A DNA stretch of 63,895 nucleotides, counting the filler, from Mitosporidium daphniae (Eukaryota): assembly GCF_000760515.2 (NCBI RefSeq). It is 4 parts of 4 records of this genome, joined end to end, with 100 filler letters (N's around TTAATTAATTAA, not from the genome) between each part and the next. Parts side by side here need not be neighbours in the genome. Positions count along the whole stretch, not along the records: positions 16,964 to 33,771 come from NW_013546728.1; 3 more parts are not named here. The stretch is one strand, 5' to 3'. The notes under the pieces are model-generated. The model saw nothing but the letters and a program-made list of their open reading frames with translations, was not told the DNA's origin and made no database searches. A program made the translations under genes and the position numbers. Position 1 is the stretch's first letter. Every line of letters starts with the position of its first letter. Below are positions 3,087-61,143 of this stretch, piece after piece.

Positions 3087-3496
3087 TTACCAATCAAATC
3101 GAATCAAAAAACTAGGCGGTTTCCCAAAGCTATAAGGTGCCAGTGCTCCTATTTGTTTCAACTGACCATGTGAACATAATTTAAACGTACAAATAGATTT
3201 AGTCTTAAAAATACGATACTTTTGTTCTATGATGGCGTTAATCATTGATTCTTGGAATCCTTTCAACATTTGCTCTAATGGATGGTAGCAACTGTAATGA
3301 AAGTACCTAAGATGAAATGCAAATTCTTTGTCGACACATTCTTGGGAGGACCATTTATCCCAGACCTTCATGTCAACAGCAGGCCTTTCGATACCTTACT
3401 TTTAAACATGATATCCTCTTTACCATCGTCACTTTCTTCATCATAACTGTCATCATTTCCAAACAATTCTATCAACTTTTCATATCTCTCCTCCAT
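3087..3496 (-). CDS. Small hypothetical protein, acidic N-terminus, at least one intron; 3' end uncertain
   Basis: ATG at 3496 (MEERYEKLIELFGNDDSYDEESDD), then a GT..AG segment leading into ORF 3087..3371. No family recognised. Confidence 0.4.
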
Positions 3497-16863: not shown

Positions 16864-16963
16864 NNNNNNNNNNNNNNNNNNNNNNNNNNNNNNNNNNNNN
16901 NNNNNNNTTAATTAATTAANNNNNNNNNNNNNNNNNNNNNNNNNNNNNNNNNNNNNNNNNNNN
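16864..16963. other. Assembly gap with artificial TTAATTAATTAA six-frame-stop linker
   Basis: 100-nt N run with a central TTAATTAATTAA, same design as the other two gaps. Confidence 0.97.
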
Positions 16964-23301: not shown

Positions 23302-26674
<3,373 letters not shown>

Positions 26675-26831: not shown

Positions 26832-28139
26832 ATGGAGGAGATCGCCGCCGTCGCTAGTAGGCGCCCGCTCGCCACAGATGCCTCCGGATTCCCCAATCGC
26901 AGGTATAAATCTGAAGGGATTTACAAGTCGGATGAGGATCAACTAGACGAGCAGGTTTCGAGTGACGAGCAATCAGAAGAAAAGGAAAATGGAAATCGCG
27001 AGTATGGACAATATGATGGAGAATGGGGCACGTCGTCTTCACCTCCTTCGTCTTCTTCACCATCTTCCGCTTCCTCTACGATCTCTGGACAATCTGCAAT
27101 TAGGATTATCAAGTTCAAAATCCCTGGTCACGAGGAAAGCGATATACCAACCTATGGCGATGTCGATGTAAATGTCGATATTATTTCTGAGGTATCTTCT
27201 GAGCCCGATGGCATGGGCGCCGCTTCTTCCATCAAAAGGCCTAAACGGAAAGCCCCGCCGCCTCCACTTTTGACGGCACGAAAGGCACAGCATTTGAGTG
27301 CCTCTTCGAAACCATCTATCATGAAGGGTCGTCAAATTACGGCTAAGGTGACTTCTCCTGCTTCTACCATTAAGCCGTCAATGGGGACCAAGGTAGCTTC
27401 TATGATCCCCTCAACCATCAAGGCAGTTTCCACAGCATCCAGGACGACTACACAATCGAATTCAAAAACATCCACACCTGCCTCAAAGCCATCTGCAGCC
27501 GGGTCAAAAGGTGCCCCGCGTATCCAGGATTTGCCCGGTTATATTTCAGACATGCGAGCATTCGTGCAGGAGATGCGATCAATTCGCCTGCGGCCTTGGC
27601 TTAGAGCCCAGGCTGATCTCCATGGAATTGGATCTGATCCTACGGCAGAAATTTCGATCGGAACAGTGCCTGTATCTTCGGCATCGATTTCCGTCCCTGT
27701 ATGGATACGATGCGACGGCGGCACATCATCTGCTCGTAGGCGACAAAATCGCCGTCAAAGTACAATTGTGGCTCCGCAAATCAATGGTACGACAGCCGCT
27801 GAGGGTGATGCGGTGATTAAGCTTCTCTCATCGTTATTAAAGCGGATTCCGGCCGCTGCAGATGAAGGGTACCTCTGCGAGGTGCCTCGCTGCGCAAAGG
27901 TATTTCATGAAAAGGAAAAGTATCGAAGGCACCTACATAACCACGTCCGAACCATCAAGCACCAACAGGCACGGAATTCTGCCCCAGCATCATCCCATGC
28001 CTTTTCTGCTGAACATGAGGAGGAGGACGATGATGATGAGGACAACATTCCTCTGATTTCCCCGCCGTCAGTCGACAGCCGTACGGCATGGGCTGTCCGG
28101 CTATATCCATTGCAAGTCGAAGCGACTCGTCACAGCTAA
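26832..28139 (+). CDS. Largely disordered nuclear protein with a single C-terminal C2H2 zinc finger
   Basis: 435-aa ORF; YLCEVPRCAKVFHEKEKYRRHLHNH; acidic, Ser-rich and basic tracts. Confidence 0.7.
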   Translation: MEEIAAVASRRPLATDASGFPNRRYKSEGIYKSDEDQLDEQVSSDEQSEEKENGNREYGQYDGEWGTSSSPPSSSSPSSASSTISGQSAIRIIKFKIPGHEESDIPTYGDVDVNVDIISEVSSEPDGMGAASSIKRPKRKAPPPPLLTARKAQHLSASSKPSIMKGRQITAKVTSPASTIKPSMGTKVASMIPSTIKAVSTASRTTTQSNSKTSTPASKPSAAGSKGAPRIQDLPGYISDMRAFVQEMRSIRLRPWLRAQADLHGIGSDPTAEISIGTVPVSSASISVPVWIRCDGGTSSARRRQNRRQSTIVAPQINGTTAAEGDAVIKLLSSLLKRIPAAADEGYLCEVPRCAKVFHEKEKYRRHLHNHVRTIKHQQARNSAPASSHAFSAEHEEEDDDDEDNIPLISPPSVDSRTAWAVRLYPLQVEATRHS

Positions 28140-28228
28140 TAAATCTAAGAGCCGAACAGGTTCCAGTGCTAATTACCGGGTTTTGGTGGAAAAACTTGAA
28201 TGTGCCAAATTTAGTTTTTAATTCGACC

Positions 28229-30631
28229 ATGTCTGCGGCCAGCCTAACTGTCATGCCGCTCGGAGCGGGGAATGAGGTGGGACGCTCTGCCATCTTGCTC
28301 TCGTTCCGGGGCAAAAATGTGCTGCTGGACTGCGGCATTCATCCCGCCCATTCAGGCATAGCATCGTTGCCCTTTTTTGATGCCATCGACCCCACTTCCA
28401 TCGACCTCATCCTGATTACACAGTAGCCTTTGATGATGGTAATTCTAGTTTCCACTTGGACCATATTGCGTCGTTGCCGTACTTTATGCAACGCACATCT
28501 TTCCGTGGCAAGGTCTACATGACACACCCGACAAAGGCAATCTACAAATGGCTGTTGCTGGACTTGATACGTCTAGCAGCAACTCCTGCAGAGTTGCTTT
28601 TTGACGAGCGTGATCTACAAGCATCTTACGAGCGTATTATCGCCGTTGACTATCACCAGGAGATTGATGTTTGCGGGGACGGCTCCATCCGCTTTACACC
28701 ATACCATGCGGGCCACGTGCTGGGCGCAGCTATGTTCGTAATCGAAATTACAGGTATCACAACTTCCTAATTACCGATAGGTAGGAAAAATGGTTTTATT
28801 TCTTAGGTGAGACAACACATTTTAGTTTACACATCCAGGGCTACGAATTCTGTACACAGGTGACTACTCGCGGGAGCAAGATCGGCATTTGCGGGCCGCT
28901 GAGCGGCCACCGGGTCCCGCACCGGACGTCATGATTTGCGAGGCAACTTATGGTGTGCAAGCGCACGAGCCACAGGCAGAACGCGAGCGGCGCTTTACCA
29001 GCCGGGTACATGAGATCGTGCAGCGTGGCGGTCGCTGTCTCTTACCAGTCTTTGCACTAGGCAAGGCGCATGAGCTGCTACTGATTTTGGACGAGTACTG
29101 GGAAAAACACCCAGAACTTCGCTCAGTTCCCATCTACTATGCCTCTTCACTCACCAAGAAATGCCTGACAATATACTCCACTTATCTTCACATGATGGGC
29201 ACAGGCTCAGACGGTGCATCTGCATCAATCACCTCTTCAAATATATTTCGCCACGTGACAAGCCTACGAGGAGCTGCTGCAGGACAGGCTGCCTCACTTC
29301 CAGGACCGTGCGTGGTGATGGCCTCTCCAGGAATGTTGCAAAGCGGGCTTTCGCGCGATTTATTAGAGGCATGGTGCGGCGACGCCCGAAACGGGCTTAT
29401 CTTGACAGGGTATTCTGNGGAGGGCACGCTCGCAAAATCTCTGCTTCAAGGTGAACCAACCGAGATTTCCTCCCTTTCCACTAAAAGGGCGTTGCCCTTC
29501 CGAATGGCTGTAGAGAGTATCTCATTCAGCGCGCACGTAGATTTCATCCAAAACGCACACTTTATTGAGGAGCTGTCTCCAAGGCATCTAGTGCTTGTGC
29601 ATGGCGAATATAATGAAATGATGCGGCTTAGAAATGCCTTACAGCACAAGTATGATGCCGAAGCTGAGCACAAAAGTGGCGACATAGCGGCTTCCGCCGC
29701 TACTACGGTGCACACACCGAGAAACTGTGAGGCATTAGAAATTGCCTTTGGTGAGCGGCGCGTAGCTCGCGTTGCAGGCTCCCTTGCGGCGGCCCTGCAT
29801 GCCGCTGGCGTTGCAGATGTTGCCAGCAACGGGGAGGATATTGCAAATGCAACGCCTACATCCCCTAAACCAATGTCTCTTCCGTCCGTCGATGCCGTGG
29901 CCTTGCTGGATCGCGGATGGGAATTGACGATTGCAGCACCGGAGGATCTTGCGGCGCATAGCTCTGGAATGCTGCGACAGGGCTCTGCTAGTGGCGCGGT
30001 AAGAGTCACATCTTCAGCACCTTGGGCGTTAGTTCACGAGCAGGTACTCGTTAACTTTTCCTTTTTGCAGGTAGTTCAGCTGGTGGGTGCCGCCAATGTC
30101 CGGTCTTCTACGGTCGATGGGATGCTTTCTTTGCTTCAGGGCGAAATTACTCTTGTCGCAGAGGACGGTGGGCTTTCGCTTCTCGTGAGCTGGCGCTCTT
30201 CTTCACCACTTGTTGAAATGATGGCCGATGCTCTTGTTGCAATGCTCACAGCTGTGGAGGGCACTCCAGCGTCAATTTCTACTTGTTGCAGCGCCACTAA
30301 AAAGGATCACATTCACGGCTCCGAAAAGGGCCATACTGACCATGATCATGGCCCAGATGCAGGTTGCTACCGCACTTCTGATGCCATTGGAGAGCTACTC
30401 GCAAACTATTATGAAGAAGTGCAGCGAGTCTCTGATGGCTGGGAAATCATTGTCGCAGAGAAGCAGGAGAAGGCGCCGTACCACCTGCGAATCACATCTG
30501 GCACTCAGTCCCCCATAGTGGTAGGCTTTATCTTCCAATCAGCATAGGAAATCGACGGACCCGACTCTCGCACTGTGTCGCAAATTCGGCGCATCGTCGC
30601 ATTACATCTGCTTGCCGTACCAAATCCTTGA
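28229..30631 (+). CDS. YSH1: CPSF73/Ysh1 pre-mRNA 3' endonuclease (MBL/beta-CASP)
   Basis: PLGAGNEVGRS, LLDCGIHP, FHLDH, AGHVLGAAMF, LYTGDYSRE, PVFALG, MASPGMLQSG, SFSAHVD, LVHGE. Confidence 0.96.
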
Positions 30632-30778
30632 CAATACCTACGTGAAAGGCCGTTGCTGCAATAAACTTTCACCCCTATTTAACGGCAAACCATAAGCCAT
30701 TGACTTTGATAGTTTATGGGAACATGAAGCATCGCATATATGTTCAAATATTTAAATGCTCATATCCATGTCTACATA

Positions 30779-31499
30779 TCAGAAACGACGAGCGAGCGCA
30801 ATAGCTGCAGAGACGCCCGCGGCAATCAACGGAAATGCCACTTTGTAGATCGGCGAACTACGCGCGCCATGCTCCAAAGCCGCATCCAAATGTTCCAGCT
30901 CTTCATCACGACACTTTGCAATGGAAGTAGCAAGTTTATGAGTCTCCGCCGCACCAAGAACGGAGTGCTCTTTTCTGTAGCCATTATATTCTGAATTGGA
31001 TGCTGACCCGATGTCTGTTTGGGTGGATGAAAGTTTTTGACAGTCTAAATTGGAATACTGATCCTGGAGGTCGGTTTGTGAGGCATCATGATTAGTCGTA
31101 CCATGTTCTTTGCGAAGACCATCAAGAAGCTCGCGTAGTTGCATGCTATAATGATTTCCGACGACCGTCTCCACGGCTTCAGTGCATGCCATGGCTGTGG
31201 AGCGGCCTGCGAATGCTGTAGCGGCGCCTAGCAGCCAGCCGCCTGCATTGCAGAGTGGCTGTAAAATCGTGGGTCGCGCCCCATATCCTTTAACAAGGTC
31301 TTCAAACAGCACAAAGTGGCCTTGCTCTTGTTCATACATTTTCTATCGTTGGGAAAGCCAAAGTTACCTGGACGAGAGGGACCGTCTCAGGATCGAGTAC
31401 CCGTAAAACAGCTAGTTGTCCTTCATATATGCGTCGCGCTGTCAGCTCGCCCGCGTGGTTTACACGCAACATTGACCGCGCAACTGCGAGTGTCGTCAT
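30779..31499 (-). CDS. COQ7: 5-demethoxyubiquinone hydroxylase Coq7/Clk-1 (1 intron)
   Basis: MLRVNHAGE..IYEGQLAVL, MYEQEQGH, AMACTEAVETVVGNHY, RDEELEHLD; acidic insertion of about 50 aa. Confidence 0.93.
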
Positions 31500-31588
31500 T
31501 GGAAGGCTCTCAAGCTGCAAATTATAACTCCAATAGGCTTCAACATTCCACTAACCCTAGTGTGGATCTAAATTAATTCTAAATCCTT

Positions 31589-32333
31589 ATGTCAGAGGAC
31601 GACCCGGCTGCGCCCGTGGTTTTTCAGTGTGGCGCGTGTAGGCGCGTGTTGGGCGACACACTCTCTTTTGTAGCTTCTGACGAGTCTGCAGGAATAGTTA
31701 CTCTTGCAAGTAAACCCATCTTTTCACGCTAGGACGGTCACCCCATGTTGCCATCGGATCCGAAATCTTGACGCAATTTGACACTGCAGCTTTTGACTAC
31801 AGAAGGTAGGCAGGACCCAAATTTGATTTTAGGTAAAATACGGCCACATTCAGTTTTAGGTAACGGTGAGATTTCCACATCGATTATAGGTAATTCTAAA
31901 ACTCCCTTATTGCCAGGTACTAAATATCGGTTTCTATCTTGCAGCACCTACTCGCTATTGAACTGCAGTTGCGGGGCAGCTTTAGGGCGGCTGTACCATT
32001 CCACGCCTAGAAGTTTTGACCATCTTCGGGATTGCTTTTCACTGTCCGTTAGTGCCCTTTCTGCGTACTTTAAAACCCCTTCGTAATAATAGATACCAAC
32101 TAGGATCTGGGCCGGATTCCCCATCAGCCGATTTTGACCCGTTCTTTACTGTGCCTTCTGCGCTCTTTTTATTGAGCGAGCTACGGAAGGTTGGCGATTT
32201 ATATCTTTCCTAGGTGCAAAAACATATTGTCGAGATGGAGATGCGCTTTGCGGCAACCGATGGGCCCGCTCCTCTGCGGCCGGCCACCAAGCGGGCGCCA
32301 AAAGCTGAACATAACCTTTTCAAACACACATAG
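31589..32333 (+). CDS. MIS18: Mis18 (Yippee-like zinc domain) centromere-licensing protein
   Basis: Spliced product PVVFQCGACRRVLGDT..DYRSTYSLLNCSCGAALGRLYHSTPRSFDHLRDCFSL..YQLGS plus a C-terminal helix. Introns at 31710-31732, 31806-31944 (compound) and two more downstream. Confidence 0.85.
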
Positions 32334-32462
32334 CAAGCAAAACGGAAATAAATTATCCATCCTCCGATATGAATGCAATTTATTATTCGTAAACGTTTTG
32401 ATTTGAAGGCCATCCAAAGGGTAACGTCTAGACGTTATACAAAGCATTCCAGGGTATGCTCT

Positions 32463-33672
32463 TTATGCGGCGGAAATGCAAACTGCGGTGATGCGGTATG
32501 GGATAGTTATATGGGCGAGGGGAACTGCGGCATTTTGATCATTGAGAGCCCAAAGCTGAATTATCCCATCCGTGGTTGTTGTCAAGAAGAGGGCAGAACC
32601 AGGTATCCGTTCAATAGCATTTATTCTGCTACCAGCAGTAGAAGAGTTTCTATGCCATTAGCAAAGCTACTTACCTCGGTACATCGGTAAGTGATGCCGT
32701 CTTTGCGGGGCGATCTTCGGCCAACGAATAGATGGAGACCAAATTTGGGTGTTCTGCAATCGCAATAGATTCTTCCGAGATGAACTCCATGGCTGTGATT
32801 TTTCGTCCAGACGATATGCTAACCGCGCCAAAAGGGCTCTTTTCAGAAATTTTGGATGCGTTGGGATCCGCGTCAGCTTTAGCTTTCTCACTGGATATGT
32901 TCGCATTTGTAGCATCCTCGGATTTTGGCAACTCATTGCGCGAGAAATTTGGATCGGATATCGAACTAGATGTTGGCTCGGAATCTGAGCCAACTCCATT
33001 GGAGGCCGGAAAGAGCTCGTGGATGTTCACGCGACATTCGAGACCCTTCTGAGCGAGGATAGCGTATTTGGTGCCGAGAGGTGAAAACCTGATTGAGTCT
33101 GGATGCATCGGAAGCTTGGTTTTGACAACCCTCTGGCCTTTGATTAAATCAAAGAGGGCGGCTGTGGCTTTTTTACGGCACACAGCCATTAAAATCTTGC
33201 CTGAAGGGTGAATAGCAAAGTCTGTGACCGATGCTTTGCCTTTCCCAACTGAGAGCTTTTTTATGAGCTCCGAATCAGCGATAGAGAGCACAGAGATAGT
33301 GCCATCCTCGAATGCAACGAACAAAAATTTTTCTTCATGGAGAATGCTCTTGGTCAGCGATACTAGGAAAAACATTGTCTTTGTACCTTCTTGCGCCTGC
33401 AAGAGTATGCCAGATTCTTGATATCGCTCCATATTTGTGAGCTTGAGCTCGTCAGCTGTCCCAGAGACCAACATAGATTTTGATGCTGAGAGGGTCAGAA
33501 TAGGGCCCTCATGTATTTTGAATCCAGCTGCTTTTTTAATGGTATACTAGGATAGAGTATAAATATTTCACCTCACCTCATTGGGTTCTGCTCCTTCTGG
33601 CGTTTTGAGAATGTCAAAGACAAATATCAACCGCTCATATGTGCCAACAATTAGCTTTGTCACATGTAGCAT
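32463..33672 (-). CDS. MAK11: WD40 60S biogenesis factor Mak11/PAK1IP1 (2 introns)
   Basis: N-terminal LIVGTYER, HEGPILTL, VTDFAIHPSGKI, LFDLIKG, IRFSPLGTKY, TTTDGIIQLW. Confidence 0.75.
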
Positions 33673-33707
33673 TAAAAATGAAATTAAAAAGATAATGAAA
33701 CAAAAAA

Positions 33708-33771
33708 TGCGACCTGTGTGGATTGAACACACGGCCTTAAGATCTTCAGTCTCACGCTCTCCCAGCTGAGC
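33708..33771 (-). tRNA. tRNA-Phe(GAA), 5' end truncated by gap
   Basis: GCTCAGCTGGGAGAGC D-arm, TGAGA-CTGAAGA-TCTTA anticodon arm, GTTCAATC T-loop, followed by T6 terminator. Confidence 0.93.
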
Positions 33772-33871
33772 NNNNNNNNNNNNNNNNNNNNNNNNNNNNN
33801 NNNNNNNNNNNNNNNTTAATTAATTAANNNNNNNNNNNNNNNNNNNNNNNNNNNNNNNNNNNNNNNNNNNN
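33772..33871. other. Assembly gap with artificial linker
   Basis: N run with TTAATTAATTAA. Confidence 0.97.
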
Positions 33872-50206: not shown

Positions 50207-50303
50207 CATCGTGGAACCACTTATCGGATCATCGTGGAACCACTTATCGGATCATCGTGGCACCACTTATCGGATCATCGTGGCACCACTTATCGAATCA
50301 TCG
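50207..50303. repeat. 23-nt tandem repeat, about 4.2 copies
   Basis: catcgtgg(a/c)accacttatcggat at 50207, 50230, 50253 and 50276; no unique spacers. Confidence 0.95.
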
Positions 50304-50667: not shown

Positions 50668-50767
50668 NNNNNNNNNNNNNNNNNNNNNNNNNNNNNNNNN
50701 NNNNNNNNNNNTTAATTAATTAANNNNNNNNNNNNNNNNNNNNNNNNNNNNNNNNNNNNNNNNNNNN
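50668..50767. other. Assembly gap with artificial linker
   Basis: N run with TTAATTAATTAA. Confidence 0.97.
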
Positions 50768-52608: not shown

Positions 52609-52676
52609 TTTGCGTGTACTCGACTGCTCGCTTTGCGTGTACTCGACTGCTCGCTTTGCATGTACTAGACTGCTCG
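52609..52676. repeat. 23-nt tandem repeat, 3 copies
   Basis: tttgcgtgtactcgactgctcgc twice, plus one diverged copy. Confidence 0.9.
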
Positions 52677-52817
52677 TTTTCAAAAGTTCTTAGCAACCCA
52701 CGAGGATAATAGCTGATCATCAAATGTGGCCAGCAATTAGCAAAGGTTTGAATGTGTGGATAATACATTTCAATTTGAGTAAATTTGGCACATTAAACTT
52801 TAATGGACATCTGATGG

Positions 52818-60565: not shown

Positions 60566-60637
60566 TTCCGTATCGGGGAATCGAACCCCGGCCGTCACGG
60601 TGAGAGCGTGAAATCCTAGCCACTAGACCAATACGGA
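60566..60637 (-). tRNA. tRNA-Glu(CTC)
   Basis: Complete cloverleaf TCCGTAT..TCACG-CTCTCAC-CGTGA..GGTTCGATTCC..ATACGGA-A, followed by T7. Confidence 0.96.
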
Positions 60638-61143
60638 TTACGTGATCAGCTACATAGATTAAACTATAATAATTATTAAAAATTGAAAATGGGCACATGC
60701 AGCAATTCAAAAAGGTAGCCCCCAAGTGCTAAATTGTGAAGAAACGAGCGAGGTCAAGCCTTAGTACAACTTCACCTTCACTTTTGAGTTTATGTTTTAC
60801 AGTAACCCAAATCACAAATCCTTTAACATATGTTAAACTACAGATCCTGTATCCCATGCATAAATTACATAGTGTGACAATTGTTATGGTACTTGATATA
60901 TATATCAGCCTGATCGCTCTATTATGATGTGAATACGTTAAATATTATCGCCATTTCCAGTTCCATTCGACCCCCATCCGCTACGTATTTAACTAGTTTG
61001 AATTGTTGTTAAAAATCTAGGCCCGGTATCTGTCAGTTTAAGCTAAACTTTACTTCACTGTCACCTGCAGGCCATAAAAAATGTTGCAACGAGTGCCTCA
61101 AAATTTAAATTCTAATGTGCACAATTAGTAAATCTTTATTTTG

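Follow-up and report, generated by a model that had tools for sequence, protein, structure and literature searches.

How does a genome whose introns are commonly about 27 nt long come to hold, within a gene, an intervening sequence of 139 nt, and how would its splicing machinery remove it? The question is raised by the MIS18 gene of Mitosporidium daphniae, described as living parasitically inside crustacean cells and assigned a place between Rozella and the canonical microsporidia (PMC13393502). The stretch of DNA analysed here, 63,895 nucleotides in all and named the window in what follows, belongs to a compact eukaryotic genome that uses the standard code. We consider it probable that the MIS18 gap consists of five complete mini-introns, stemming from an old duplication, each of which is likely to be spliced singly, as an intron defined by its length, in several rounds. 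The gene is organized as follows.

31589..31709, plus strand: MIS18 exon 1, with the first CxxC (Pfam Yippee-Mis18 positions 1-30, E 7e-6)
31710-31732, plus strand: intron after exon 1, 23 nt
31733..31805, plus strand: MIS18 exon 2, ending in AG right before the chain, phase 2; aligns to 13 homologs
31806..31832, plus strand: chain unit 1, 27 nt, GTAG..TTAG; 12.6 bits, at the 64th percentile of the held-out single introns
31833..31859, plus strand: chain unit 2, 27 nt, GTAA..TTAG; 9.8 bits, 26th percentile of held-out single introns
31860..31889, plus strand: chain unit 3, 30 nt, GTAA..ATAG; 8.6 bits, 10th percentile of held-out single introns
31890..31916, plus strand: chain unit 4, 27 nt, GTAA..CCAG; 11.2 bits
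31917..31944, plus strand: chain unit 5, 28 nt, GTAC..GCAG; 12.1 bits
31945..32064, plus strand: MIS18 exon 3, with the second zinc-binding motif (Pfam Yippee-Mis18 positions 55-93, E 9e-10)
32093-32189, plus strand: MIS18 exon 4, preceded by an ordinary 28-nt intron
32214-32334, plus strand: MIS18 exon 5, preceded by an ordinary 24-nt intron

As a preliminary description of this DNA had it, to the very base, the interval 31806-31944 divides into five GT..YAG units (27, 27, 30, 27 and 28 nt) with zero bases between them. The acceptors read, in order, TAG, TAG, TAG, CAG and CAG, the donors GTAG, GTAA, GTAA, GTAA and GTAC, and unit 3 also contains an alternative inner donor, GTGAG, at 31866. Genes were modelled across the window, and 73 single introns were accepted by hand as a reference set, leaving out poor models (the regions at about 11.9-13.7 kb and 49.4-52.8 kb, together with a number of small ORFs) as well as single doubtful introns in otherwise good genes. 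All 73 measure 23-35 nt, with a median of 27, a range that may be too clean because the gene finder penalised lengths outside 21-36 nt and the poor regions were excluded; 59 of them start with GTA and 65 end with TAG. On a splice-site matrix, held-out singles score 6.5-17.5 bits (median 11.8), against a median of 1.1 for 4,425 decoy GT..AG stretches. The MIS18 units score 8.6-12.6 bits, and the eight units of the two chains considered here (26-32 nt, 6.1-16.7 bits) all lie within or at the edge of the range of the singles, in keeping, for MIS18, with the earlier view that each unit has an ordinary intron's size and ends.

That the whole of the 139 nt has to be removed to make Mis18, also proposed at the outset, is borne out by protein homology. 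With all of it out, the five-exon model encodes 176 aa, is letter-for-letter identical to protein P0121, that is KAM0683257.1 (Mitosporidium daphniae, NCBI), and reaches 107.9 bits against a profile built on 13 homologs, for at most 103.5 in all 17 alternatives. Exon 2 provides 24 codons, which fill Pfam Yippee-Mis18 positions 31-54, left over between the stretches matched by exons 1 and 3; exon 3 also matches S. pombe Mis18, whose structure is solved, as well as a protein chain that bears the name Mis18-alpha; and the spacing from the first cysteine to TY is 52, for 47-52 in the 13 homologs. A 6-nt micro-exon drawn from unit 2 was discarded: it needs a 21-nt intron at 0.6 bits, and the profile score falls to 103.5. 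Nor is the chain an assembly error, because contigs of five runs cross it unchanged: in 5/5 listed runs (2 studies), contigs of 16.7-41.9 kb carry it through without substitution, indel or joint, these being genomic-type contigs that are uninformative on splicing and that may include the source sample.

A second chain lies in the same window.

28754..28838, plus strand: CPSF73/YSH1 chain of three abutting units (27, 26 and 32 nt), phase 1, upstream exon ending in AG

Its units score 11.7, 16.7 and 6.1 bits, the third below every held-out single intron. The GHVLG..YTGD motif, present in 117/120 CPSF73 homologs, has a 23-residue spacing in 117/117, which the protein of the window reaches only with all 85 nt removed; the NCBI model agrees. 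The best named match is from Paramicrosporidium (46%), and the CPSF73 cluster includes KAM0683255.1 (M. daphniae). In a relative at 83% identity (P0002), the naive CPSF73 ORF begins three residues before the chain junction, with those residues unrelated, a start that fits a putative intron ending at the same position. A micro-exon model suggested by the gene finder was rejected, as it adds 6 residues absent from every homolog. In both genes, therefore, protein homology and the identical NCBI proteins indicate that the whole chain is absent from the product, with no internal exon; exons lost between units are ruled out, as the spacing in homologs leaves no missing residues (117/117 for CPSF73; 52 for 47-52 in Mis18). 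These models should not be taken as proof of an RNA junction, because the NCBI model of CPSF73, KAM0683255.1, reads through two probable 27-nt introns that we judge real, at 30044-30070 and 30521-30547 (plus strand); the relative P0002 stops just inside the first of these. The chains are two of about 76 modelled intervening sequences in the window. Both follow an exon ending in AG, as do 18/73 singles. CAG ends (31916, 31944 and 28838) are seen in three of the eight chain units and in 6/73 singles (Fisher p=0.04, post hoc), and CAG closes the final unit in either chain.

Could such a layout be produced by chance? In a window-wide scan, chains of at least three units were found at 2 independent places, against 0.06 +/- 0.33 in 200 Markov shuffles of the window (a third listed row, a sub-chain of MIS18, being left uncounted), so that periodic AG|GT chains do recur beyond shuffles, as had been anticipated. 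Five-unit chains appeared in 0/200 shuffles. Of 100,000 introns simulated at 139 nt, 0 tiled exactly; at 85 nt, 9/100,000 did so under loose rules and 0/100,000 under strict ones. With a stricter score six junctions pass, five of them within the two chains, while 60 shuffles give 0.48 +/- 0.67; and YAG|GT junctions inside intervening sequences, four in MIS18 and two in CPSF73, are far above shuffles. The chain layout is real, recurrent and far beyond chance. Motif-level pairs of two units are not clearly above chance in the window (14 rows, for a null of 6.5 +/- 2.6 chains of at least two units, maximum 14), and we therefore make claims for the longer chains only. Several of these pairs, in COQ7 and SEC24, were set aside as an exon end followed by one ordinary intron. 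At 3275-3337, on the minus strand, a small gene has two abutting intron-like units of 31 and 32 nt, which pass the score and may likewise be an exon end and one intron.

Both chains resemble recursive splicing at zero-length exons and would probably work like it, as putative members of that class. The preliminary description placed recursive sites in long animal introns and stwintrons in fungi, a framing that is incomplete, since single zero-length exons are described in two fungi. In the BOT1 gene of C. neoformans, a 375-nt intron made of 210 + 165 nt is removed in two steps via a zero-length exon (10.1101/224170), and SPNCRNA.445 of S. pombe has one zero-length exon in a 336-nt intron (10.1101/226894), both shown on RNA. 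As there, a 3' splice site is followed directly by a 5' splice site inside one annotated intron; unlike there, where one site is involved, in rare cases with RNA proof, the chains of M. daphniae have four and two putative sites of this kind, and their segments of 26-32 nt are of normal intron size and cover the whole sequence. With the ratchet points of Drosophila and mammals, which typically belong to introns over 10 kb and are described as ordered 5' to 3' (PMC13149111, PMC10156609), the chains share several AG|GU relay points per intervening sequence; they differ in measuring 139 and 85 nt, instead of having very long host introns, and in that each segment is a minimal intron in its own right. 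Stwintrons and complex intervening sequences, reported from Aspergillus, Hypoxylaceae and Lipomyces, contain several U2 introns excised by consecutive reactions under intron definition and are, like the present chains, short fungal sequences of several introns for which duplication has been proposed as origin; however, they are nested, the inner intron interrupting the donor, branch site or acceptor of the outer one and so imposing an order (PMC7138796). The units of M. daphniae abut, and before any splicing each already possesses an intact GT and YAG. Within the same clade, the microsporidian Poly-A and S23 introns likewise exceed the usual length in a tiny-intron lineage, but these are described as single introns whose branch point is extended and which have a conserved stem-loop (PMC6349667), while the MIS18 chain has no CTRAC-type motif, a fold z of +0.5 and no Rfam match. 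A literature search in which coverage of subscription papers was thin brought up no case of minimal introns chained together in a genome of tiny introns.

How, then, would such units be recognized? The window itself offers some indications. A CTRAC-type motif is the branch consensus, and GTAAGT that of the donor. Only 12/73 singles match GTAAGT at 5/6 or better, and a CTRAY-type branch motif is found in 6/73. Length probably carries much of the recognition, because the introns measure 23-35 nt, their donors are weak and the branch motif is rare: the spliceosome would pair each GT with an AG about 27 nt away. Excising any unit would recreate an AG|GT junction, and the order of removal would therefore be free, not strictly 5' to 3'.

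Length does not seem to be an absolute limit, because longer unchained introns appear to exist. At 23486-23550 (minus strand), near the end of PEX1, there is a candidate 65-nt intron with a GTTAGT donor and a CTGAC branch motif, the only stretch above 36 nt in the window that has both a strong donor and CTRAC; a 50-nt version also keeps the frame, and a homolog check of the PEX1 end brought 105 candidates, none of which scored. The RPS23 intron of M. daphniae is reported to be 152 nt long (PMC6349667). These introns favour an account in which the 139 nt would be removed mainly in one step, the internal AG|GT being relics of duplication, rarely or never used, and so does the NCBI annotation, which has one single intervening sequence at the MIS18 chain; the preference for one-step splicing in human short introns with recursive lariats (PMC10156609) goes in the same direction. 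We nevertheless find this account unlikely. The chain seems ill suited to being removed in a single step, because the CTRAC-type motif is absent from all five MIS18 units and the outer donor matches GTAAGT at 4/6, while the PEX1 candidate has a strong donor and a branch motif. Unused sites should decay, yet 6/6 internal junctions and 8/8 lengths are intact in units whose interiors are near background. The persistence of every end and length despite divergence argues that each internal site is still in use, and the contrast with PEX1 suggests that an intervening sequence can be long either by having strong signals or by forming a chain.

Stepwise removal might also have been kept as a regulation, in the form of an AND-gate, a delay or a limit on the dosage of Mis18 and CPSF73 via nonsense-mediated decay. 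Instant stops in the MIS18 intermediates, announced in the preliminary description, are indeed general, since translation ends within two codons whichever units are retained, in 31/31 possible combinations; five steps would moreover multiply any inefficiency, and MIS18 and CPSF73 are both probably essential. The AND-gate idea is nonetheless unsupported, because the immediate stops follow from the phase-2 position and the GTAA/GTAG donors: 32/73 singles would do likewise if placed in phase 2. Retention products of CPSF73, in phase 1, do not stop at once but continue over several to about 40 residues; the MIS18 chain has no unusual fold (z +0.5); no Rfam match, hence no sign of an intronic RNA gene, was obtained in 28000-33000 at E up to 1; and the two genes share no pathway. 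A limiter specific to a cell-cycle gene is likewise unsupported, the other chain sitting in the gene of CPSF73, a 3'-processing nuclease. A regulatory function is thus quite improbable, and no such role is needed to explain the chain.

A further feature of MIS18, absent from the preliminary description, deserves attention. Read in the frame of exon 3, which lies downstream, the chain contains no stop and places a glycine at every junction (31790-31960, plus strand); freedom from stops is seen in 836/66,828 length-matched random five-intron joins (p about 0.013). One could then read the stretch as partly coding, a weak 43-nt intron (31747-31789) shifting the frame and the units acting as modules of 9-10 residues, kept or skipped; that units 1-4 are all multiples of three agrees with this, as does the open frame over the whole chain. 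We hold this to be barely credible. The 43-nt intron that it requires has a GTTGCC donor and falls outside the range of 23-35 nt; the 16 models of this type all reach 93.6-99.4 bits, for 107.9 with the chain fully removed, and drop the aligned residues of exon 2; the CPSF73 chain has no open frame; and there is no ATG in the exon 3 frame of the MIS18 chain. We treat the open frame as probably due to chance, because it is reachable only through that weak intron, with models 8.5-14 bits lower.

There remains the origin of the five abutting mini-introns. Recent tandem duplication is ruled out by the lack of similarity between units, which are no more alike than random pairs of introns (set mean 3.9, for 4.2; p=0.57). 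This agrees with what was first noticed, with one refinement: MIS18 units 1-3 still resemble one another weakly (p=0.025, post hoc), no pair being significant on alignment score. In the scheme that we propose, an old tandem duplication would have copied an entire intron, with the final AG of the upstream exon and the intron's own final AG as its two boundaries; the interiors would then have diverged, selection keeping the ends and the length of each unit. This old duplication of whole introns is a likely, if weakly supported, source of the chain, and the likeliest one, because units 1-3 are faintly alike and both chains follow an exon-final AG. That the interiors diverged while every GT, AG and length was kept points to selection on the splice sites of each unit. 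Introns may also be gained by duplication of an exonic AGGT. This model is not favoured here, the downstream exons beginning with CA and GG, not GT. No clear sequence family, of the kind formed by introner-like copies, was found among the 8 units and the 73 singles of the window. A scan of metagenomes for relatives gave 17 loci of other eukaryotes, at 32-53% identity, none close and several redundant: in 0/17 is there an intron at the position of the CPSF73 chain, 11 being intronless between the two CPSF73 motifs and six having a 30-nt intron at another position, and no MIS18 or COQ7 match and no chain of at least three units was seen among them.

We may extend this picture, tentatively and as something possible rather than probable, to the whole clade that comprises Rozella and the microsporidia: introns would grow there as polymers of the minimal intron, because, short of a strong donor and branch site, the spliceosome would read nothing but units of about 27 nt, to be taken out over several rounds in no set order; this trait would be ancestral to Rozella and Mitosporidium. 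If so, recursive splicing would be routine and genome-wide at its smallest scale, accompanied by the multiplication of introns at single sites, and, for want of a strong donor and branch site, longer intervening sequences would be assembled and maintained in chain form. The usual explanation of recursive splicing is that it helps to deal with giant introns; with units of 26-32 nt, the chains would illustrate the opposite extreme, driven by the way in which a reduced spliceosome measures tiny introns. They offer a visible route for the multiplication of introns at one site, which standard annotation hides by calling each chain a single intron, and, at 85-139 nt, a substrate small enough for complete testing. 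Does an exon of zero length require exon definition, is the order of removal free, and can two spliceosomes sit on adjacent introns of 27 nt?

Other features of the window may be recorded here. Identical 100-nt spacers, each a 12-nt palindrome flanked on either side by 44 N, at 16864-16963, 33772-33871 and 50668-50767 are joins. Short tandem repeats with units of about 22-23 nt occur at 50211-50303 and 52609-52680, in poorly modelled regions. The public runs differ from the window at 27035, 18803 and 28029, the differences being an 18-nt insertion and 3-nt deletions within coding repeats of low complexity. Finally, tRNA-like genes were noticed by eye at 33700-33771 and about 60567-60640, the first of which has further copies in the runs and interrupts the contigs.
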